From NCBI GenBank assembly GCA_965223985.1, contig OZ245030.1, forward strand, positions 2,240,082 to 2,304,081: a DNA stretch of 64,000 nucleotides, in the 5' to 3' direction. Positions within the stretch are counted from its first letter, which is position 1. Each line of letters opens with the position of its first letter. Below, piece after piece: positions 36,476 to 45,162 of the stretch. The notes beneath the pieces were generated by a model that was not told where the DNA came from, searched no databases, and saw only the letters and a list, made by a program, of their open reading frames with translations. This stretch comes from Candidatus Poribacteria bacterium (GTDB taxonomy: Bacteria > Poribacteria > WGA-4E > PCPOR2b). Made by a program: the position numbers and the translations under genes.

Positions 36476-38113
36476 ATGAGTCGCCGATATCTCATCCATT
36501 TTGATTCTGCGAAGCTCCCGAGAATCGACACCGATATTTTGGTTGTTGGAAGTGGCAGCGCTGGATTAAGGGCAGCCATTGAAGCCAATCGTCATGGGGA
36601 TGTCGTGTTGATCACAAAAGGCGCGCTTCAAGAGAGTAGTTCGCGCTATGCGCAAGGTGGCATCGCCGTTGTCATGAGTGCGGATGACGAAATCGGTTTC
36701 CATGTCGAAGATACCCTCAACGCAGGAGCTGGACTCTGCAACGAAACTGCTGTACAGATCATGGTTGAAGAGGGAATTGAACGGGTCTCGGAACTAATTC
36801 AATGGGGCGCAAATTTCGATAAAGAGGGTGAAGCCCTCGGTTTCACCCAGGAAGCGGCGCATCAACGCCGGCGTATAGTTCACCGAGGCGACGCCACTGG
36901 CGCAGAAACCACGCACGTTTTAGTTACGCATCTCATGAAGCAAAAGCGGATACAAGTTATCGAGCACGCCTTCGCGGTCGACTTTATGACGCAGGACAAC
37001 ACATGCTACGGGGTAGTCGCCCTCATCAATAACACCCTCCATTGCATCTTTGCCAAAGCCACAATCCTTGCAGCAGGTGGGCTTGGGCGTATCTATAAAT
37101 GTACGTCGAACCCAGAAGTTGCAACGGGCGACGGCTTCGCTCTCGCGTGGAGGGCGGGCTGTGAAATGATGGATATGGAGTTTGTCCAATTTCATCCAAC
37201 GACCCTGTTCCTAATGGGTGCACCCCATTTCTTAATCTCTGAAGCCTTGCGGGGTGAGGGCGGAACCTTAATCAGCGGGCGTGGAGAACGGTTTATGGGA
37301 AAATATCACGAACTGGAAGAGCTCGCACCGCGAGATGTGGTGAGCCGCGCCATCCTAAGTGAAATGGAATTGACGGGTTTGCCCTGTGTCTATTTGGATA
37401 TCACACATCTATCCCCGAATTTCATACAGAACCGCTTCCCGACAATCTATCAAACGTGTAGTCAGTACGGAATCGAAATTTCAACAGATTTAATCCCTGT
37501 TCGACCTGGAGCGCATTTTATGATGGGCGGTGTCCGAACCAATATGAATACCGAGACCGTTATTCGCGGACTTTCCGCCTGTGGAGAAGTTGCCTGCACA
37601 GGCGTCCATGGCGCGAATCGACTCGCGAGTAATTCATTGCTTGAGTGTATCGTTTTCGGCACTCGTGCGGGGACAGCCGCGGCTGAATATGTGGGGACAC
37701 TCGGAACAAAAGTGTATGCGAATGTTCGGATTCGGTCAGATGACGAATCAGAATCTAGCGACGATGAATTCAATGGCGTAGCCGCTCCGACTGGTGAGGT
37801 CAACTCAGCCCAAGATATTGTCCGTGAGCTGATGTGGAAACACACCGGCATCCTCAGGAATGGGGAGGACCTAAAGATAGTTGCCGATGCGTTGGCAACA
37901 TTGGATCAGTCAATATTGGGAAATCAAGTTAAAGCGCTCGAACTTCAGAATATGCTTGAGGTCGCGAGGTTGATAACTCGTATAGCAATTGTACGCACCG
38001 AAAGCCGGGGAGGACACTATCGGGAGGACTTCTCCGAAAGAGATGACACGCATTGGCGAAAACACCTCGTCGTTCGTCGAAATGAGCAAACGTTGAGATT
38101 TGAGCCGGTGTAG
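36476..38113 (+). CDS. nadB: L-aspartate oxidase
   Basis: GSGSAGL, YAQGGIA, EAAH, MEFVQFHPT, TGVHGANRLASNSLLE, ESRGGHYR. Confidence 0.92.
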   Translation: MSRRYLIHFDSAKLPRIDTDILVVGSGSAGLRAAIEANRHGDVVLITKGALQESSSRYAQGGIAVVMSADDEIGFHVEDTLNAGAGLCNETAVQIMVEEGIERVSELIQWGANFDKEGEALGFTQEAAHQRRRIVHRGDATGAETTHVLVTHLMKQKRIQVIEHAFAVDFMTQDNTCYGVVALINNTLHCIFAKATILAAGGLGRIYKCTSNPEVATGDGFALAWRAGCEMMDMEFVQFHPTTLFLMGAPHFLISEALRGEGGTLISGRGERFMGKYHELEELAPRDVVSRAILSEMELTGLPCVYLDITHLSPNFIQNRFPTIYQTCSQYGIEISTDLIPVRPGAHFMMGGVRTNMNTETVIRGLSACGEVACTGVHGANRLASNSLLECIVFGTRAGTAAAEYVGTLGTKVYANVRIRSDDESESSDDEFNGVAAPTGEVNSAQDIVRELMWKHTGILRNGEDLKIVADALATLDQSILGNQVKALELQNMLEVARLITRIAIVRTESRGGHYREDFSERDDTHWRKHLVVRRNEQTLRFEPV

Positions 38114-38217
38114 GTGATAAGAAACCCTACACATTACAAAGTCGCGGGGATAAAGACAAATTCTTTACAGAAAGGACACCTTTTTTCGCCGTTACAGAAA
38201 TGATTTGGGAGATTTAA

Positions 38218-38805
38218 ATGTCAGAGATAACAACTCAGGATGCAATTCAGAATTACAAAGGGGTGCTTCAACAACTCTGTCATGAGAGGAACCTTGGAGA
38301 ACCGTTGTATGAGTCTATTCAGCAAGGAAAACCGGATTCGCCTAGCTGGATGGTTACCGTTGAGTATGGACAATCCAGTTATACAACGCCTGCCCCGATT
38401 CGCGGCTCAAAGCGGCTTGCGGAACAGATGGCAGCCGAACAGGTTCTTGAAACGATCGAGTCTCGCCAAGAAGCATTTTTAGCGGGTAATCCCCTTAACG
38501 GTGAGCCAGAGGCAGTGCAGTCAGTCGAAGCCGTTGCCGAAGTTGAACTGCCAACAAGTGAAACGCCTTCGACGGAAACGCTTAATGTGCCAATCGAACT
38601 GGTTGCAAGCGCACTCGGTATTGCGAATCATCGGTTGGTAACGTTACGCAGTGGAACCCGATATCGTGAGACGGCTGAGTCCGAGAACGCTAGTCAAATG
38701 TTTGCACAAAACCTAGCCGATTTAACCATGAGAATCGTGCGTGAGGTTTTTACTGCTGCAGAGAGGTCAAATATTAAATTTGGCGAGAATGCTGGAAAAA
38801 ACTGA
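38218..38805 (+). CDS. Stand-alone double-stranded RNA-binding domain protein
   Basis: NYKGVLQQLC..LGEPLYE...GSKRLAEQMAAEQVL (RNase III-type dsRBD), with no RNase III catalytic domain. Confidence 0.75.
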   Translation: MSEITTQDAIQNYKGVLQQLCHERNLGEPLYESIQQGKPDSPSWMVTVEYGQSSYTTPAPIRGSKRLAEQMAAEQVLETIESRQEAFLAGNPLNGEPEAVQSVEAVAEVELPTSETPSTETLNVPIELVASALGIANHRLVTLRSGTRYRETAESENASQMFAQNLADLTMRIVREVFTAAERSNIKFGENAGKN

Positions 38806-38912
38806 GTAACACTCAGGAAAAGTCGAGCGATTGCTTTAACGAACACCCAATATCTAATTTGAATTCAAGGTAGAATACTTGAAACATTCAAACAAAAGTG
38901 TTGCAATAATCT

Positions 38913-38941
38913 TTGACATACAATTATCTAGATGCTATAAT
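38913..38941 (+). promoter_or_regulatory. Consensus sigma70 promoter pointing antisense into bfr
   Basis: TTGACA-N17-TATAAT. Confidence 0.85.
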
Positions 38942-38960
38942 TATGCGTTATCACTAAAAT

Positions 38961-38979
38961 GATAATGAGTCTCAATATC
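38961..38979. promoter_or_regulatory. Fur box
   Basis: GATAATGAGTCTCAATATC, 15/19 match to GATAATGATAATCATTATC, just downstream of the promoter and beside iron genes. Confidence 0.8.
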
Positions 38980-39205
38980 ATATCCCTGGCAATTCATGAA
39001 GAAAATTCTTCTTGTGCGGGCGGAAGGCAATCAGATGGTACGGGTTCGAATATAATGGAGGTTGATTTATACACTGTCCTTCGTGCAATCAGACGGTTCA
39101 GACTGTTCTGAATCAGGGGCGTCAAGCACCCCCCGGGCAAAAGTGGTACTACTGTCACCTCTAGCTTAGCGCCTCGCTAACCTTTGGTGTCATAAGGGTA
39201 CATGG

Positions 39206-39685
39206 TTACGCTTCTTCGGTGCCAATTTGTTGCGCAAGGTAGTTTTGGATTCCCATCTGGTTAATCTGGTCTAACTGGGCTTCAATCCAGTCGACGTGGT
39301 CTTCCTCATCTCTGAGAATCTCTTCCAGAAGTTCTCGCGAACCGGCGTCTTTGTGCGTAATTGCGAGCTCGATGAACACATTCAGCCGCTCAACAGCTTC
39401 TTTTTCAAGGTCAAGATCGTTTTCCATCATCTCCTCGACGGTCGTGCCAATCCTAATCTCAAAATAACGCTTCATGTTGGGCATGGCGTTGAGATACAGA
39501 ACCCGCGCGATCAGTTTTTCCGCATGCTTCATCTCACCAATCGCATGCTCACGTATCGTTTGATGGAGATGATTGTATTGCCAATTTTCACAAATTTCGG
39601 AATGGGCGAAATACTGATTGATTGCAGTGAGTTCGGATGTCAAAACTTCGTTGAGAACATCGATGATTTCGGGATGACCGTCCAT
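39206..39685 (-). CDS. bfr: Bacterioferritin
   Basis: ELTAINQYFAH, EMKHAEKLI (heme Met), EEDHVDWIE ferroxidase motifs. Confidence 0.95.
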   Translation of the reverse strand: MDGHPEIIDVLNEVLTSELTAINQYFAHSEICENWQYNHLHQTIREHAIGEMKHAEKLIARVLYLNAMPNMKRYFEIRIGTTVEEMMENDLDLEKEAVERLNVFIELAITHKDAGSRELLEEILRDEEDHVDWIEAQLDQINQMGIQNYLAQQIGTEEA

Positions 39686-39754
39686 TGTTTTCTCCTTTAC
39701 ACTTGGATGAGTTAGCCTTTATCAGAACCCTTCAAATTTAGGTGCACACATAAT

Positions 39755-39784
39755 AGTATAGTTGAGCGTGGTTCGAGATGTCAA
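39755..39784 (-). promoter_or_regulatory. bfr promoter
   Basis: Minus strand TTGACA-N18-TATACT. Confidence 0.65.
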
Positions 39785-39846
39785 GCGGGGAAACTAGAAA
39801 ATCCTTGGCGCATCGAATCCAACAATACATTGATTTGGAGATTACA

Positions 39847-40845
39847 ATGTTCAGATATTCCGCTGGTGTTCTGAGTTTACTCCTAAGCGCGGCAATATTC
39901 GGAACAACAGATGCCAAGGAATTGGTGATTTATTCTGGAAGAAGTAAAAGTCTAGTTGAGCCAATCATCAAACAGTTTGAGAAGGAGACCGGCACCGAAG
40001 TCAAAGTACGGTACGGCGACACTGCGCAGTTGGCGGTTGCTTTACTGGAAGAGGGCGCAAAAAGCCCGTCAGATCTGTACTGGGCGCAGGACGCCGGTGC
40101 ACTCGGAGCGTTGAGCAAGCAAAAACTCTTTAGCCGATTGCCCGACTCGATTTTATCTGAGGCGCCGGAGCGTTTTCGAAACGTAAACGGAACTTGGGTC
40201 GCCACCAGCGGTCGTGCGCGCGTACTTGCCTACTCACCTGAGCGTGTCAACCCGGAAGCGTTACCCAATAGTATCTTCGATCTCACTCAGCCCATGTGGA
40301 AGGGACGAATCGGTTGGGCGCCACAGAACGCATCATTCCAAGCTTTCGTAACCGGAATGCGAGTTCTAGAAGGCGAGGAGAAAACCGAGGGCTGGCTGCG
40401 AGGTATGAAGGCAAACAAATCTAAAAGCTATGCAAAAAACACCCCGATCATCCAGGCGATTGCCGCCGGTGAAATTGATATGGGATTGCCAAACCACTAC
40501 TATCTCCTGCGCTTCAAAAAGAGCAATGCGAAGTTCCCTGTCGAGCAGACCTTCTTCAAAGCCGGCGACCTAGGAAATCTGGTCAACGTAGCTGGCATAG
40601 CTCTCCTGAAGAGTAGCAGGCGGTCTGAAGACGCGTTGGCGTTCATCAAATTTTTGCTATCCACCAAAGCCCAGCAGTTCTTTACCAGCGAGGTCTTCGA
40701 GTACCCAGTCACGGATAAGGTGATTCCAAACGCAAAACTGTTATCGCTGGATGACCTTCAAAAGCAGATGCCAGCTCTTAACCTAGAGGATTTAGACGAT
40801 CTGGATGGCACGCTGAAACTACTGAGGAAGGTCGGTCTTCTATGA
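39847..40845 (+). CDS. fbpA: Fe3+ ABC transporter substrate-binding protein (FbpA/FutA-like)
   Basis: LVIYSGR, EGAKSPSDLYWAQDAG, SGRARVLAY, NHYYL (Tyr-Tyr iron ligands). Confidence 0.85.
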   Translation: MFRYSAGVLSLLLSAAIFGTTDAKELVIYSGRSKSLVEPIIKQFEKETGTEVKVRYGDTAQLAVALLEEGAKSPSDLYWAQDAGALGALSKQKLFSRLPDSILSEAPERFRNVNGTWVATSGRARVLAYSPERVNPEALPNSIFDLTQPMWKGRIGWAPQNASFQAFVTGMRVLEGEEKTEGWLRGMKANKSKSYAKNTPIIQAIAAGEIDMGLPNHYYLLRFKKSNAKFPVEQTFFKAGDLGNLVNVAGIALLKSSRRSEDALAFIKFLLSTKAQQFFTSEVFEYPVTDKVIPNAKLLSLDDLQKQMPALNLEDLDDLDGTLKLLRKVGLL

Positions 40846-42419
40846 GAACTCTTCTCGCGCGGCAACTCTCTCCATGGTATTTAACGCTTCCTGCGATTGC
40901 GGTCGGAACAGCAATACTCTTGCCATTGGCTTACCTACTCGTCCGAGCCTTCCAAGCGGAAGCAGCGGATCTCATGCAGATTGTCTTCCGTGCGAGAAAT
41001 CTGTACCTCTTCGTGAATACATTTCTCCTCGCTGCTGGGGTACTAGCTGTCGGCGGGTTATTGGCGACCCCTCTTGCGTGGCTCACCACACGTACAGAAC
41101 TCAAAGGCAAACGGATTTTTACCTTGTTGGGCGTTTTGCCACTGGCGATTCCGGGTTACGTAATGGCGTATACTTTGTTGGGACTGAGCGGTCCCGATGG
41201 AATTGTTGCGAGTCTCTTTGGGCTCAAGTTGCCCCGTCTAAGTGGCTACTGGGGTGCGCTCATCGCACTCAGTTTCTACACGTTTCCTTATCTCTTTGTG
41301 AATATACGTTCAGCGCTGTTAGGGCTTGATGCGGCGCTCGAAGAATCTGCTCGCAGTCTCGGTTACCGGACATGGGAAGTTTCCCGATATGTGGTTATCC
41401 CACAGCTTCGCCCAACCTTTTACGCTGGCGGGCTCATCGTCGGACTGCACGTTCTCGGTGATTTTGGCGTGGTTTCATTGATGCGCTACGAAACCTTTAG
41501 TTACGCGCTTTACTCGCAGACCCAATCCTTCGATCGCACTTACGCGGCTTGGCTCGCATTGATGCTTCTCCTCCTCGCTGGCGTCTTCATCTACACTGAA
41601 GCTAAACTGTTGCGTGGAACTAGGCTTCACCGCACAGGAAGTGGTCCACCTCGTAAAGTATCACTTATCCCCCTTGGTCCTTGGCAGGGACCTGCCTACA
41701 TTTTCCTCGGCGTTTTAGCGTTTGCCAGTGTGATTGTTCCCACTGTAACAATCTGTTTCTGGATGCTGAAGGAAAACGTAACTTCAAATTTTCAAGCCCT
41801 GCACGAAGCACTCCTTGGATCGGTCTTTGCTTCAACACCTGCCGCGCTTATCTCCACCTGCTTCGCTGTGCCGCTTGCCTATTTGGGCGTGCGTTACCCC
41901 ACGTTCCTCTCCCGAATCCTAGAACGTGTGGCATATATCGGTTACGCCACTCCACCTGTGGCTCTCGCACTTGCATTCATCTTTTTCACACTACAAATAC
42001 CTGGGATTTATCAGACACTTTGGGTCTTGATCTTTGCTTACACATTGCACTTCCTCGCTGAAGCAATCGGTCCCGTCCGTAGCGCGCTCTATCAAGCGCC
42101 GCCTCGCTTGGAGGAGGCCGCTCAGTCTCTTGGCTATGCCCCTCTAAAGGCGTTTATCAAGGCAACTTTTCCGCTTTTGCGCGGCGGACTTACAGCGAGT
42201 ACCGCCTTAGTTTTTCTCTCTGCCATGAAAGAACTCCCCCTTACAGTCTTGCTTTCTCCCGCGGGATACGAGACGTTGGCGGTAAACGTCTGGGGTTACA
42301 CAACAGAAGCTGAATTTGCCAAAGCTGCACCGTACGCACTCGTCATTCTGCTTTTCTCGGCACTGTTTCTGGGACTTCTACTCATCCAGGAAAGGATTCA
42401 CCATGAAGCCCTTGCTTAG
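40842..42419 (+). CDS. fbpB: Fe3+ ABC transporter permease (FbpB-like)
   Basis: Two EAA loops (LEESARSLG, LEEAAQSLG), DFG, MKELPLT. Confidence 0.85.
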   Translation: MRTLLARQLSPWYLTLPAIAVGTAILLPLAYLLVRAFQAEAADLMQIVFRARNLYLFVNTFLLAAGVLAVGGLLATPLAWLTTRTELKGKRIFTLLGVLPLAIPGYVMAYTLLGLSGPDGIVASLFGLKLPRLSGYWGALIALSFYTFPYLFVNIRSALLGLDAALEESARSLGYRTWEVSRYVVIPQLRPTFYAGGLIVGLHVLGDFGVVSLMRYETFSYALYSQTQSFDRTYAAWLALMLLLLAGVFIYTEAKLLRGTRLHRTGSGPPRKVSLIPLGPWQGPAYIFLGVLAFASVIVPTVTICFWMLKENVTSNFQALHEALLGSVFASTPAALISTCFAVPLAYLGVRYPTFLSRILERVAYIGYATPPVALALAFIFFTLQIPGIYQTLWVLIFAYTLHFLAEAIGPVRSALYQAPPRLEEAAQSLGYAPLKAFIKATFPLLRGGLTASTALVFLSAMKELPLTVLLSPAGYETLAVNVWGYTTEAEFAKAAPYALVILLFSALFLGLLLIQERIHHEALA

Positions 42420-43518
42420 TGTGCGCAATCTTACCAAGCAACTTGCTCCTCACCTTGGCCCTGTAGTAGTGCGGGTGAGCTTTGATGTTTACCCCAGCGA
42501 AATCTTCGCGCTTTTAGGTCCGAGCGGCTGTGGGAAGACAACGACATTGCGAATGATTGCCGGCTTTGAGCGCCCTGATGCAGGAGAGATTTATCTGGAA
42601 GATCGGCTTCTTGACAGCCCCGAAGTACACCTGTCACCGAAAACACGGGGAATCGGATTTGTCTTTCAGGACTACGCCCTTTTCCCGCATCTCAACGTCA
42701 TGGACAATGTCGGATTTGGACTCAGGAAACTGCCCGCAAAATCGCTTCGTCAGCGGTCTCTAGAGGTGATGGAGTTGGTCAACCTGATTTCAATCAAAGA
42801 TCGGAAGCCTCATGAGCTTTCGGGGGGAGAGCAACAGCGGGTCGCGTTGGCTCGTTCAATTGCTGCAGGTCCCGAGTTAATCCTGTTAGACGAGCCATTT
42901 TCTAACCTTGATGCTGAGTTGCGTCATACAACCCGTGAAGAGGTGCGGGGGCTGTTGAAAAAAACCGGGATGAGCGCGGTGTTGGTCACACATGACCAAG
43001 AGGAAGCTCTCTGCTTAGCCAATAGAATCGCTGTAATGCAGAACGGACAGATTGAGCAAGTCGGGACACCCGAATCAATCTATCACCGTCCACAAACACC
43101 ATTCGTGGCGGAGTTTCTTGGTAAGACAAACCTGATTGCTGGAGAAGCTAAGGGCGATTGTGCCGACACTCCGCTGGGTATACTGCCACTCGATTGCAAT
43201 GTGGTGGGGAAAGTGCTGCTTTCGATTCGCCCTGAGCACCTTGCTATTGAGCATTCCAATAAGGTTCACCTGAATGGTTTCCGAGGTAAAATCGTGATGC
43301 GCGAGTTTAAGGGGCATGATTTGACGTATCGGGTACAAATCGGAGAACACAGTTACTTTGTGCAGACTGACCACCGCTGCCCGTTTAAGGTCGACGATCA
43401 AGTGCAGCTTAGAGCCGTTGAGACCGCAGTGGTGATACGTGGCAGCGACGAGTCCGGTACGCTTAAATCGCCACCCAGTATGCATAGCCAAGATACGAGC
43501 GCGGCGAAATCTTTTTGA
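42403..43518 (+). CDS. fbpC: Fe3+ ABC transporter ATPase (FbpC-like)
   Basis: GPSGCGKTT, FQDYALFPH, LSGGEQQR, LLDEP, TOBE-type tail. Confidence 0.85.
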   Translation: MKPLLSVRNLTKQLAPHLGPVVVRVSFDVYPSEIFALLGPSGCGKTTTLRMIAGFERPDAGEIYLEDRLLDSPEVHLSPKTRGIGFVFQDYALFPHLNVMDNVGFGLRKLPAKSLRQRSLEVMELVNLISIKDRKPHELSGGEQQRVALARSIAAGPELILLDEPFSNLDAELRHTTREEVRGLLKKTGMSAVLVTHDQEEALCLANRIAVMQNGQIEQVGTPESIYHRPQTPFVAEFLGKTNLIAGEAKGDCADTPLGILPLDCNVVGKVLLSIRPEHLAIEHSNKVHLNGFRGKIVMREFKGHDLTYRVQIGEHSYFVQTDHRCPFKVDDQVQLRAVETAVVIRGSDESGTLKSPPSMHSQDTSAAKSF

Positions 43519-43890
43519 GAACTGTGCGAATGAGGATTGTTAGCTAATGGAATACAGATTATTGCTTAACACGCTGGCTTACCTTGGGACACCACATGCT
43601 TTTCAGGACGCAAGTGAAAAGTAGGAAGTCCTTTGCTCTCCACCGTCCTTTATCTTCCATAGTCTTCCTTATGAGGGACGAAGCGGGACATTGCTCCGAT
43701 TTCATGGGAAGTTTTCTATCAGAAATGGTATGATTCACCAATCTGAACCTATCGTCTCAACCCCAAACATCTCGAAACAGGGTTCATCTCTACGAAATCT
43801 TTCCAACCGGGGGATTATGGGAGCACGGAGAACTTCTCTCGGCTTCCCTTTTGGCTATATGTGGAACAGTCTATTTTTGAAGGAGTAATC

Positions 43891-45162
43891 ATGTCTAGCG
43901 AGAACATACTAACGCAGCCGGTGCAACCTGCTGTGAATATCGTTGACCCCATCCACGATTTTGTAAAAGAAGGTGTTGATTTACATGTCGAGCGTCTTGA
44001 CACCGAATCCGATCCATTTTGGAAAACATTGTGTGACCTTGGTACCGAGCTCTGGCTCGACACAGGTGACATCGACGGAGCAACGCCGCTATGGACTGAT
44101 GAATTCACCGCCCTAACGACGAACAACACCCTGCTTAACGCCGAAGTCCAAAAAGGTATCTACGACGATCTGATTCAGAGAGCTGCCGATGCGCTTTCTG
44201 GGTTGGATATGCAGACTCGGATTATCGAGATTGCGTTTGTACTAAATGCCTATCATGGACTTCGTCTAGCTCAGCGATTTGGCGGCAGGGTAAGCGTAGA
44301 ACTACATACAGATCTGGCACATGACATTGAGAGAAGCGTATCCTATGGTTACCGGTATTACAACATTTGCCCCGAGTCCTTTATTATCAAAATCCCACTG
44401 ACACCAGCTGGTCTAATTGCCACACGACGCTTGCGAGAATCAGGAGTACCAGTTAATTTCACTTTGGGGTTCAGCGCACGACATAATTACATAGCAACGG
44501 CATTTAGTGCGCCTTCGTACGTTAACGTCTTCCTTGGTCGGCTCAATGCTTACATGGTTGATAATCAATTGGGTGACGGCAAGTCGGTCGGTGAAAAGTC
44601 TTCACTTGCGAGCCAGCGAGCCGTCAAAAACCTTACTCGGGGTACTCGCGAACCGACTCGGCAAATCGCCGCGAGCTTGAGAGGGGCTGAACAGCTTGCG
44701 GATTTGGCAGGAATTGATGTTATCACCATGCCTGTTAAGGTTGCATCTGCTGCCAAGAATGAACTCTCCGGAGAGTGGAAACACAGTGTTGAAAACGATT
44801 ATTCGATACATCTCAACGACGATGTCAGTGCATCGGATGTCCGTATACATACGTTCTGGGAAGTTTCAGAGTCCGAGCGTCGGTTCGTTGACGGTCTCAC
44901 AACCGATGTCCCTCGGACAGCGGAGGAGTTGATGAAGCAAGCGCATGACGTTGGTGCCGGCGATCTGTTCCCCAGGCTTTCTGAAACAGACCTCGACCAA
45001 ATCGCATCCGACGGAAAAATTCCGAATCACAAAATCTGGGCAGATCGCGTCAAATCAGGAGAACTAGCGATTGACACGCTCTTGAACCTCGCTGGACTAG
45101 CCTCGTTTGCCACCGACCAAAAGGCGCTCGACGAACGCATCCACAGACTGATTGGCGGGTAA
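43891..45162 (+). CDS. Transaldolase family protein
   Basis: LWLDTG, LTTNNTL, VSVEL, IIKIPLTPAGL, VNFTLGFS. Confidence 0.8.
   Translation: MSSENILTQPVQPAVNIVDPIHDFVKEGVDLHVERLDTESDPFWKTLCDLGTELWLDTGDIDGATPLWTDEFTALTTNNTLLNAEVQKGIYDDLIQRAADALSGLDMQTRIIEIAFVLNAYHGLRLAQRFGGRVSVELHTDLAHDIERSVSYGYRYYNICPESFIIKIPLTPAGLIATRRLRESGVPVNFTLGFSARHNYIATAFSAPSYVNVFLGRLNAYMVDNQLGDGKSVGEKSSLASQRAVKNLTRGTREPTRQIAASLRGAEQLADLAGIDVITMPVKVASAAKNELSGEWKHSVENDYSIHLNDDVSASDVRIHTFWEVSESERRFVDGLTTDVPRTAEELMKQAHDVGAGDLFPRLSETDLDQIASDGKIPNHKIWADRVKSGELAIDTLLNLAGLASFATDQKALDERIHRLIGG

Follow-up and report, generated by a model that had tools for sequence, protein, structure and literature searches.

A conserved iron-box promoter facing the bacterioferritin gene of sponge-symbiont Poribacteria may link iron storage to ferric-iron uptake

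What does a perfect promoter do when it stands over an iron-type operator, has no gene of its own and points at the 3′ end of a bacterioferritin gene (bfr), beyond which the ferric-iron uptake operon fbpABC lies on the promoter's own strand? This arrangement occurs in a 64,000-nucleotide stretch of a Candidatus Poribacteria genome (the window; contig OZ245030.1), and a preliminary description had read it as an excludon-like iron switch. The explanation we prefer, held tentatively and at somewhat less than an even chance, is a non-contiguous, excludon-like unit in which low iron would fire the promoter and the resulting RNA would overlap the bfr mRNA and probably reach fbpABC.

The promoter (Table 1) bears out the first claim of that description, scoring 12/12, with TTGACA at 38913–38918, a 17-nt spacer, TATAAT ending at 38941 and a TG ahead of the −10, and it is the sole perfect site among the seven promoter-like sites of a scan of 38000–44000. 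Perfect TTGACA-N16-18-TATAAT sites number 59 genome-wide against about two expected from composition, and the organism therefore uses promoters of this kind. Placed from the −10 element, + strand transcription is predicted to start near 38948. The promoter is an orphan aimed at the bfr 3′ end: searches behind it for an ORF, an Rfam family or a conserved RNA body found none, and it has no substantial gene downstream, as previously stated. Within 38942–39205 the + strand has just two ORFs of at least 30 aa, of 50 and 35 aa. That it drives a small protein gene in 38959–39169 strikes us as highly improbable in spite of these two ORFs and another of 18 aa, for the 50-aa ORF starts within the operator and its string MIMSLNII is also produced by the operator at an unrelated locus, the 18-aa ORF has no ATG in the aligned genome G003, and a stretch of about 60 nt in the region is missing from two congeners (G001 and G002), with no frame conserved.

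Table 1. Coordinates of the features at the bfr–fbpABC locus
Feature	Position	Strand	Remarks
Terminator-like hairpin (38816-38802) then TTTTTT	38794-38816	-	6 pairs, tail TTTTTTCCAG
Sigma-70 promoter, TG-extended	38913-38941	+	12/12 consensus; 83-97% identity to congeners
21-bp palindromic operator TGATAATGAGTCTCAATATCA	38960-38980	n/a	order-specific iron (Fur-type) box
Non-coding leader, unconstrained sequence	38981-39165	+	56-66% identity, no Rfam match
Weak terminator-like hairpin TTAGCG-CCT-CGCTAA, tail CCTTTGGTGT	39166-39190	+	6 pairs, 3 G-C
bfr, bacterioferritin, 159 aa	39206-39685	-	TIGR00754, Pfam Ferritin
bfr promoter TTGACA-18-TATACT, without operator	39755-39784	-	11/12; 90-95% identity in congeners
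fbpA-proximal part of the gap	39791-39832	+	no conserved promoter or operator
fbpA, periplasmic ferric-iron-binding protein	39847-40845	+	PDB 7w3w match, Pfam SBP families
fbpB, permease, 525 aa	40842-42419	+	BPD_transp_1, two matched stretches
fbpC, ABC ATPase with TOBE domain	42403-43518	+	ABC_tran, TOBE_2

The operator had been described as a Fur box matching at 15/19 in 38961–38979. That score stands (the two strands give 15/19 and 16/19 against the 19-bp consensus of E. coli type), but 19 sites in the genome, counted on both strands, reach at least 15/19, so that the match alone is not above chance; the true site is the 21-bp palindrome, centred at about +22 relative to the predicted start. 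With a clade-derived matrix it scores 31.6 bits and is the best such site of the 4.69-Mb genome by 13 bits, the runner-up reaching 18.1. Of 176 genomes from the phylum, 146 contain the strict operator pattern, and these belong without exception to four families of one order; a reversed-pattern control gave no match in any genome searched. Elsewhere the same motif lies 14–24 nt past the −10 of promoters of porin–imelysin, TonB-receptor, nitroreductase and fbpA units, frequently in two copies 70–170 nt apart. The classical Fur box is the 19-bp GATAATGATAATCATTATC. Our operator resembles it in being an AT-rich palindrome with outer arms TGATAAT and ATTATCA, in a genome encoding a Fur-family protein, and differs from it in its core (TGAGTCTCA), its greater length, its position downstream of the −10 instead of over the promoter, its frequent duplication and its restriction, among the genomes searched, to a single Poribacteria order. 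Regulon content and the single Fur-family gene suggest the name Fur box and make Fur a candidate for the binding protein; one DtxR-type regulator gene is encoded as well.

Judged by the genes that it adjoins, the operator is part of an iron regulon. In relatives it comes after near-consensus promoters, both those of units for a porin-like protein, an imelysin, a di-haem oxidoreductase and a NUDIX protein and those of TonB-receptor, nitroreductase and multicopper oxidase–fbpABC units, and ABM monooxygenase and PepSY_TM genes also lie next to it. In relatives fbpABC itself belongs to the operator's regulon: in 19/19 intact loci of the sister genus g5, fbpA is served by a strong promoter of its own and by an operator of 26.7 bits 45–65 nt upstream, one genome (G005) has two operators ahead of fbpA, and the bfr-less family f2 places an operator before fbpA or a multicopper oxidase–fbpA unit in 26 of 30 loci. 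The orphan promoter is not significantly similar to that of g5 fbpA, their resemblance being equalled by 63 of 1000 shuffles.

The genes beyond the promoter are as first described. The − strand gene at 39206–39685 is bfr, its product scoring 180 bits against TIGR00754 (cut-off 125.55) and 123 bits against Pfam Ferritin, and the translation contains Met52, Glu18, Glu51 and His54, which we take to be the haem and ferroxidase ligands. On the + strand, FbpA matches solved ferric-binding proteins (7w3w, E 1.5e-112; 3wae and 4elo, E ~2e-80), and permease and ATPase are recognised by Pfam. The 160-nt gap between bfr and fbpA holds only the bfr promoter, again as claimed, with no + strand promoter of at least 9/12 and no operator-like site (best score −0.1 bits); its fbpA-proximal part shows the neutral level of identity, 64–71% to G001 and G002. 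Among bfr-bearing genomes, 21 of 22 have no operator-like site between bfr and the next gene (≤4.9 bits; null 95th percentile 6.3). That fbpABC has its own operator in relatives where bfr is not its neighbour, and none here, is what a one-transcript model predicts. The gap also carries, among the genomes compared, a poorly conserved TAGAAA, TATAAA or TACAAA at 39795–39800.

A weak fbpA promoter at 39795–39800, or one overlapping the conserved bfr promoter, is possible, and with it an account in which fbpABC is expressed independently of the operator and the orphan transcript, ending before or inside bfr, acts on bfr only, as a cis-antisense RNA against its 3′UTR or 3′ end or through interference. 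We rate this as a serious though rather unlikely alternative: it would leave fbpABC without the operator that those g5 and f2 loci carry, and dependent on a gap that offers neither a + promoter of at least 9/12 nor, near fbpA, more than neutral identity.

Conservation of the layout bears on both accounts. An operator-controlled unit converges on the bfr 3′ end in 37 of 39 bfr-bearing genomes, the other two having too little flank; in these 37 the operator is found beyond the 3′ end of bfr and any ORFs in between read towards bfr, the exception being one 141-aa opposite-strand ORF among seven in G006. The nearest operator match of at least 18 bits is weak or inside a gene in G026 and G011, and in G026 the operators heading the converging unit sit further upstream. 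Since relatedness makes these genomes non-independent, the effective sample is about seven genera. The gene-less form of the unit is found in 16 genomes from three genera of three families (4/4 of this genus, 10/10 of g11 and 2/2 of the bfr-bearing g12), at an operator–bfr distance of 92–247 nt, and in this genus a 29.7–32 bit operator and a 12/12 promoter are present in 4/4 genomes. The order promoter, Fur box, bfr (−), fbpABC (+), whose conservation the preliminary description had proposed to check, is kept in 4/4 genomes of the genus and 10/10 of g11, which belongs to another family and has a small Rieske gene ahead of fbpA. A full operon lies between operator and bfr in g5, g3 and g4, and coding genes flank bfr on both sides in g5, all on the promoter's strand; inherited gene order could account for the convergence in these three genera. 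In G026 (g9) the converging TonB-receptor gene is separated from bfr by a strong 15-bp hairpin, and an operator-like site of 12.9 bits lies downstream of bfr, so read-through is not universal. All of the convergence holds for an antisense effect confined to bfr too, which also draws on g12, where the orphan promoter is kept and the genes past bfr and its Rieske neighbour are not evidently for iron uptake, and on g5, where the unit facing bfr is an operon complete in itself, with no call for anything downstream.

The full operons of g5, g3 and g4 also invite the reading that the orphan promoter is a functionless relic of operon rearrangement in an iron gene island, its convergence merely inherited. 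In this genus that operon is elsewhere (the porin operon of the present genome lies about 1 Mb from the orphan promoter), and a rearrangement must therefore have taken place. Against a relic, which we think improbable, promoter and operator keep their full strength throughout the genus as the leader decays to neutral identity, an orphan unit of the same kind is retained in ten g11 and two g12 genomes, and the leader contains no remnant of operon genes, showing no similarity to porin-operon proteins.

Fur-repressed trans-acting sRNAs (RyhB, PrrF, NrrF, FsrA) lower bfr at low iron; in this logic an RNA made at iron starvation cuts iron-storage and iron-using proteins, and Fur seems an indirect activator of bfr. 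The orphan transcript would share that logic, and the preliminary description had offered as its alternative a discrete Fur-regulated sRNA, here taken as an RNA of RyhB or PrrF type and about 240 nt (38948 to ~39190) that lies next to bfr by chance and would base-pair with the mRNAs of bfr and of further genes. The strong, regulated promoter, the lack of an ORF behind it and the hairpin with its short T-tail would suit such an RNA, as would the separate RNA-library contig 38894–39198 of run X10, an unstranded piece that begins upstream of the predicted start. Our comparison weakens this proposal, and we consider it unlikely. The leader is 56–66% identical to G001 and G002, with 72–73 gapped columns besides, against 72–74% identity at bfr third codon positions; lying below synonymous-site identity, the RNA body has no conserved seed. 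An Rfam search of the leader gave no family, its folding is nothing unusual against shuffles (z-score −0.8), a DNA query of the entire intergenic region aligned in g11 over the operator part alone, the g11 and g12 loci L006 and L043 have no terminator-like site on the promoter strand, and a search for Hfq did not find it. A trans-acting RNA would have no need of the constant placement beside bfr, in one orientation, that three genera show, and this one, unlike RyhB-type sRNAs, is encoded opposite its target and has no good terminator. Retention of promoter and operator (83–97%) but not of the RNA body fits a function set by the direction of transcription instead of by RNA sequence.

How far each transcript extends can be estimated from terminator-like signals, of which the region holds no more than expected (5 against 6.7 in shuffles). 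On the bfr strand, the first one past the stop codon is at 38794–38816, beyond the orphan promoter, as it also is in L006 and L043. It overlaps the stop codon of the dsRBD gene upstream, and its hairpin is kept in 4/4 congeners with the full + strand A-run in 3/4; the bfr mRNA may end there, making this the candidate 3′ end of a long 3′UTR. On the + strand no strong terminator precedes bfr, just as had been noted: the weak hairpin (stem 39166–39180) is followed by only three T in all four congeners and is probably leaky. It could still stop many transcripts, and its partial retention in congeners favours an RNA confined to bfr. No promoter-strand terminator-like site before bfr was found in L006, L043 or L045 (g5). 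The RNA data are unstranded assembled contigs, from which strand, starts and single transcripts are not readable, so that contigs 39661–39868 (X10) and 38966–40255 (X5) are weak hints of read-through; contigs of X1 and X2, and the X10 contig at 38894–39198, extend over the orphan promoter as well, and this points to carry-over of DNA or transcription of the − strand.

Starting from sequence elements, conservation and a regulon context that are directly seen, the non-contiguous unit that we prefer would work as follows. With iron plentiful, a Fur-type repressor on the palindrome, just past the start site, would hold the promoter off; with iron scarce, the derepressed promoter would send a transcript towards opposite-strand bfr. 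Because the long bfr 3′UTR appears to cover the promoter region, this RNA and the bfr mRNA would overlap even if the transcript stopped at the weak hairpin, and polymerases passing the hairpin would collide head-on with bfr transcription; by overlap or collision, bfr expression would drop. We infer that the same transcript probably crosses the gap, joining the orphan leader to fbpABC, and a single derepression event would then give less iron storage and more Fe3+ uptake.

The S. aureus non-contiguous operon menE-menC-MW1733-ytkD-MW1731, as presented in PMC7154746, likewise embeds an opposite-strand gene between co-directional genes, and in both cases the mRNA of the embedded gene would overlap and oppose the transcript of the operon. 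Relative to that account, co-transcription is here a prediction, the upstream half in this genus is promoter and leader only, bfr has the opposite role (storage against uptake) and a metal-responsive operator stands over the unit; RNase III, part of the mechanism described for S. aureus, was not found here in a domain search, and the usual excludon processing route is therefore not evident. The Listeria excludon (Sesto et al. 2013, as cited in PMC7154746) has a long RNA that starts at a regulated promoter, overlaps and represses its opposite-strand neighbour and may double as mRNA for downstream genes, 3′UTR overlap of convergent units being one layout listed there; the overlap proposed here draws on layout conservation in about seven genera of an uncultivated phylum. 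Fur-regulated antisense transcription, responsive to intracellular iron, controls the sense gene ler of enterohaemorrhagic E. coli (PMC4090186), which, unlike bfr, is a virulence regulator and in that account is apparently not tied to any uptake operon downstream. The layout described here recurs in sponge-symbiont Poribacteria, where under iron scarcity it probably gives up iron storage in favour of uptake.

We read this locus, at a little short of an even chance, as a non-contiguous, excludon-like unit in which a single promoter and operator on the plus strand face the bacterioferritin gene bfr on the minus strand, with the Fe3+ ABC transporter genes fbpABC beyond it on the plus strand again, which is the layout of an excludon or non-contiguous operon. 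The sigma-70 promoter, which has no gene of its own, proves to be perfect, as the preliminary description had it (see table); the genome under study (G000) has 59 such perfect sites where base composition alone would give about 2, which marks them as genuine signals of this organism. The 15/19 match of the adjoining palindrome to the Fur box also stands as a match, but it is not significant on its own, since 19 sites in G000 (both strands) reach 15/19. The significance of this operator comes instead from relatives, through a clade-specific 21-bp matrix and not the canonical 19-bp Fur consensus: a matrix built from six clade sites gives it 31.6 bits, with the runner-up in 4.69 Mb at 18.1. Of 176 genomes from the phylum, 146 carry the strict pattern TGANNNTGAGTCTCANNNTCA; all of these belong to four families (f1–f4) of a single order, the 17 genomes from other families lack it, and its reversed control is absent from every one of the 176. 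Copies per genome run from one to six among the matches listed. When the intergenic region was used in a DNA search, only the short operator stretch was matched in other genera, at 96–97% identity.

Features of the bfr locus (window positions), with identity to G001 and G002, the two more distant congeners used for segment comparison
Feature	Position	Strand	Identity to G001/G002	Remarks
dsRBD-protein gene	38218-38805	+		195 aa
Terminator-like signal	38816-38802	-		with TTTTTT; first on the bfr strand past the bfr stop, beyond the promoter
Orphan promoter	38913-38941	+	83-90%	sigma-70; TTGACA, 17 nt, TATAAT, TG ahead of the -10
Operator	38960-38980		86%	21-bp near-palindrome TGATAATGAGTCTCAATATCA; begins 18 bases past the -10
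Leader	38981-39160		56-66%, plus 72-73 gapped columns	
Weak hairpin	39166-39180	+		followed by CCTTTGGTGT; only terminator-like site before bfr
bfr	39206-39685	-	72-74% (third codon positions)	bacterioferritin
fbpABC	39847-43518	+		Fe3+ ABC transporter

In relatives, the motif lies 14–24 nt past the −10 of near-consensus promoters, frequently in two copies, and heads several types of unit: porin-like protein, imelysin, NUDIX protein and di-haem oxidoreductase; TonB-dependent receptors; nitroreductase; and fbpABC preceded by a multicopper oxidase gene. Operators there also adjoin genes for ABM monooxygenase and PepSY_TM. Recurring upstream of iron-acquisition genes across relatives, the motif is an iron-regulon site. 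A single Fur-family protein, 163 aa long, is encoded in G000 (Pfam FUR 100.6 bits; its top NCBIfam matches are Fur models, below their cut-offs), together with one of DtxR type, so that a Fur-type protein is the presumed binder of the operator. The only other intergenic operator locus in G000 (G000:C1:1283350-1289016) has two weaker operators (16.1 and 17.9 bits) ahead of porin-like, imelysin, NUDIX-like and di-haem oxidoreductase genes, the first two at G000:1283350-1285825; its NUDIX-like gene, matched as two pieces that overlap, may carry a frameshift. In the sister genus g5 (loci L030, L032–L037) the regulon has an unexpected member, a nitroreductase-family gene, which has a consensus promoter and operator and is divergent from a putative aldo-keto-reductase-like gene, read from sequence. 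Operator-like sites (21.4 and 16.7 bits) also occur inside fbpA itself, within its first 130–200 coding nucleotides, in two genomes of the related genus g11 (L048 position 3444; L049 position 2595).

The layout around bfr is widely retained. The Bfr protein scores 180 bits against TIGR00754 (cut-off 125.55), which identifies it as a bacterioferritin, and its translation carries M52, which we take to be the haem ligand, and E18, E51 and H54, which we take to be the ferroxidase ligands. The gene was found in 39 of the 159 genomes of the order (7 of 18 genera), and its surroundings were examined in all 39 at an operator threshold of at least 18 bits. An operator lies on the 3′ side of bfr, with intervening ORFs reading towards bfr, in 37 of them, the other two (G018 and G066) having too little flank; this count carries the caveats that the nearest hit of G026 is within a TonB-receptor gene that real operators precede, that the nearest hit of G011 is weak (20.0 bits) and that one of seven ORFs in G006, of 141 aa, is on the opposite strand. 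No gene separates operator from bfr in 16 genomes, namely 4/4 of the genus under study (g1), 10/10 of g11, from another family, and both bfr-bearing genomes of g12, from a third, the distance to the bfr stop being 92–247 nt. In g5, g3 and g4 the whole operon from porin and imelysin to oxidoreductase ends 26–130 nt from the bfr stop, and in g9 the gene converging on bfr encodes a TonB receptor. The porin operon of G000 lies about 1 Mb away, yet the bare promoter and operator still face bfr. Beyond bfr the next genes are always on the promoter's strand (g1, g11, g9 and g5): fbpABC in g1, a Rieske gene and fbpABC in g11, an ABM gene and fbpABC in g9, and Rieske and ABM genes in g5, where coding genes flank bfr on both sides. 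The order promoter–Fur box–bfr(−)–fbpABC(+), first described from the window, is kept in 4/4 genomes of the genus and 10/10 of g11; support for the layout as a whole spans about seven genera, which are not independent.

FbpA matches solved ferric-binding proteins (7w3w, E 1.5e-112, plus many FbpA, HitA and SfuA chains), and a duplicated permease and an ATPase with a TOBE domain (Pfam) mark the transporter as of FbpABC type; the NCBIfam equivalogs for FbpABC all stay below their cut-offs. In g5, with fbpA away from bfr, 19/19 intact loci have an 11–12/12 promoter and a 26.7-bit operator 45–65 nt upstream (a twentieth genome, G065, in which fbpA is in two pieces, was left out). In the bfr-less family f2, 26 of 30 fbpA loci have an operator, which directly precedes fbpA in 4 and one co-directional ORF of 279–385 aa in 22, a multicopper oxidase in both loci scanned. 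fbpABC is therefore a core member of the regulon. G005 has two operators ahead of fbpA; in G006 and G008 the 1.5 kb before it contain no operator, but a co-directional ORF lies upstream. As had been claimed, the bfr–fbpA gap of G000 holds no Fur box or other operator-like site and no clear plus-strand promoter (none of at least 9/12). Similarly, of the 22 bfr-bearing genomes tested, 21 lack any operator-like site between bfr and the gene that comes next (at most 4.9 bits; 95th percentile of the null, 6.3), the exception being G026, with 12.9 bits and also a strong 15-bp hairpin ahead of bfr. What is conserved in the gap among congeners is the bfr 5′UTR (84–87%) and the bfr promoter (90–95%); the fbpA-proximal part (39791–39832) is at the neutral level, 64–71%. 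With no operator in the gap, the nearest one on the fbpA strand is the orphan operator, about 870 nt upstream across bfr. This absence is as a single-transcript model predicts, and indirectly points to it; the narrower reading that the promoter acts on bfr only, by antisense, is somewhat less likely in our view.

In a separate candidate history, the orphan promoter may be orthologous to that of g5 fbpA, with bfr inserted in the fbpA leader. Similarity between the spacers falls short of significance, being equalled in 63 of 1000 shuffles, and is comparable with that to porin and f2 promoters. Over the whole region the orphan promoter aligns best with that of g5 fbpA (14.1 vs 10.0 and 7.2 for other regulon promoters). 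In g11 (L006–L008, L014, L015, L019, L048) the interval separating the bfr promoter from the start codon of the Rieske gene contains a conserved inverted repeat, GAATTCCGCACACTCGATT ... AATCGAGTGGAATTC, of about 19 bp, which might act as an insulator or form a structure in the RNA of a long leader. The bfr gaps of L050 (G006) and L049 (G059) and the region upstream of fbpA in L162 (G008) have an inserted palindromic element, GAAACCGAGTTTTTC..GAAAAACTCGGTTTC, which looks like a small mobile repeat.

Transcription from the orphan promoter towards bfr would meet no strong terminator, in agreement with the preliminary description; the weak hairpin is partly retained in congeners, in each case with only three T, and no terminator-like site on the promoter's strand is predicted before bfr in L006 (g11) or L043 (g12). 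Reading on from the bfr stop codon, the earliest terminator-like signal of that strand lies beyond the orphan promoter in G000, where its hairpin is kept in 4/4 congeners, and likewise in these two loci. These predicted signals suggest that the bfr 3′UTR covers the orphan promoter, in which case the transcripts would overlap whatever the weak hairpin does. In g5 (L045–L047 and other loci) the 26–44 nt between the converging di-haem oxidoreductase gene and bfr contain a small hairpin, GGGAGC-N7-GCTCCC, that spans the stop codon of bfr and is followed by no T-run on either strand.

RNA-library evidence comes from unstranded Logan contigs of four RNA libraries aligned to 38200–41000, which show neither strand, ends nor single molecules; the RNA runs containing the stretch include sponge metagenomes. 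All four libraries contain it at 95–99% identity or better, and contigs cover the region and bridge the junctions of bfr with its neighbours. Those of runs X1 and X2 are continuous from 38200 past the fbpA start (to 39910 and 40410), X5 has one contig (38966–40255) after a break at 38892–38965, and X10 has separate pieces at 38894–39198 and 39661–39868, the second of which bridges the bfr and fbpA starts. Because neither strand nor ends are shown and DNA carry-over is possible, we take these contigs as weak hints, and the uncovered parts of X10 and the X5 break are not interpretable. The break coincides precisely with the promoter, the predicted start site and the first operator bases and has a loose end of 18 nt at 38891; a strain variant or the start of a transcript could account for it.

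The leader holds no substantial gene, again as first described, the only plus-strand ORFs of at least 30 aa being of 50 and 35 aa. That the promoter serves a small protein is barely credible, as no ORF is kept: the 50-aa ORF begins within the operator, an 18-aa ORF lacks a start codon in G003, and the region holds a stretch of about 60 nt missing from two congeners. Since leader identity falls below that of bfr third codon positions, the RNA body is unconstrained; 38948–39205 folds no better than shuffles on either strand (z −0.8 and −0.6), and an Rfam scan of 38700–39950 with E up to 10 returned only chance-level matches (CRISPR repeats, snoRNA and lncRNA models), far below gathering scores. 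A discrete, trans-acting Fur-regulated sRNA of RyhB/PrrF type, the alternative originally entertained, is weakened accordingly and appears improbable: an unconstrained body leaves no conserved seed, there is no match to a known family, the intergenic DNA search matched the operator part alone in g11, and Hfq (PF17209) was not found in the 96% complete G000. The terminator for such an RNA would be the weak hairpin with three T in g1, with none predicted in L006 and L043. Still less credible is a functionless relic, since no remnant of the porin-operon genes was found in the leader; compared with the g5 porin, imelysin, NUDIX and di-haem oxidoreductase genes by tblastn and blastn, it gave a best E of 0.12, the sole exception being an 11-nt identity adjoining the bfr stop codon.

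RNase III processing of the duplex is the usual excludon mechanism, not a strict requirement. The RNase III domains PF14622 and PF00636 were not found in G000, and PF14622 was found in 0/55 sampled genomes of the order vs 4/6 from other families of the phylum, by a search of imperfect sensitivity whose control genomes included bacteria that it missed. The order may have lost or replaced RNase III, and antisense control would then need transcriptional interference or another nuclease. The product of the gene upstream of the promoter has a dsRBD at its N terminus, and its C-terminal 115 aa match nothing in Pfam or PDB. A tie between this gene and an antisense mechanism was considered and rejected: it is single-copy in 153 of the order's 159 genomes and, except in g1, is situated a long way from bfr, and we therefore treat its adjacency to bfr as coincidental.

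For the excludon-like unit we envisage that at low iron the repressor would leave the operator and the consensus promoter would fire; the resulting transcript would pair with the tail of the bfr mRNA, or its polymerases would collide with those from the bfr promoter, and read-through past bfr would then supply fbpABC. More generally, we put forward as a tentative possibility that in sponge-associated Poribacteria the trade-off between storage and uptake is set by gene order and not by a RyhB-like sRNA. bfr would be kept as the lone opposite-strand gene within Fur-controlled uptake units, where one derepressed promoter would silence it by convergent or antisense transcription and by read-through express uptake genes (fbpABC in g1; Rieske and ABM, or Rieske and fbpABC, elsewhere), and the bare promoter and operator would be kept by selection where the upstream operon has been lost or moved.

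In many bacteria Fur seems to “activate” iron-storage genes, the textbook route being a trans-acting sRNA with Hfq. If our model holds, an entire order of sponge symbionts not yet in culture would arrive at this Fur-storage logic through a cis arrangement. Excludons and non-contiguous operons (definitions in PMC7154746) and Fur-controlled antisense transcription (PMC4090186) are already in print. In our literature search we met neither antisense control of bfr nor any account of iron regulation in Poribacteria, and the bacterioferritin passages of PMC3516471 do not mention an antisense RNA to bfr. Under our model the locus would represent a metal-regulated non-contiguous operon with its antagonist, bfr, embedded antisense, a case backed by conservation over several genera and not by one transcriptome, and excludon-type control would be predictable from sequence alone. 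The analysis also yields a Poribacteria iron operator and a small regulon, with one to six sites per genome among the matches listed, which aid in reading iron status from sponge-holobiont metatranscriptomes.
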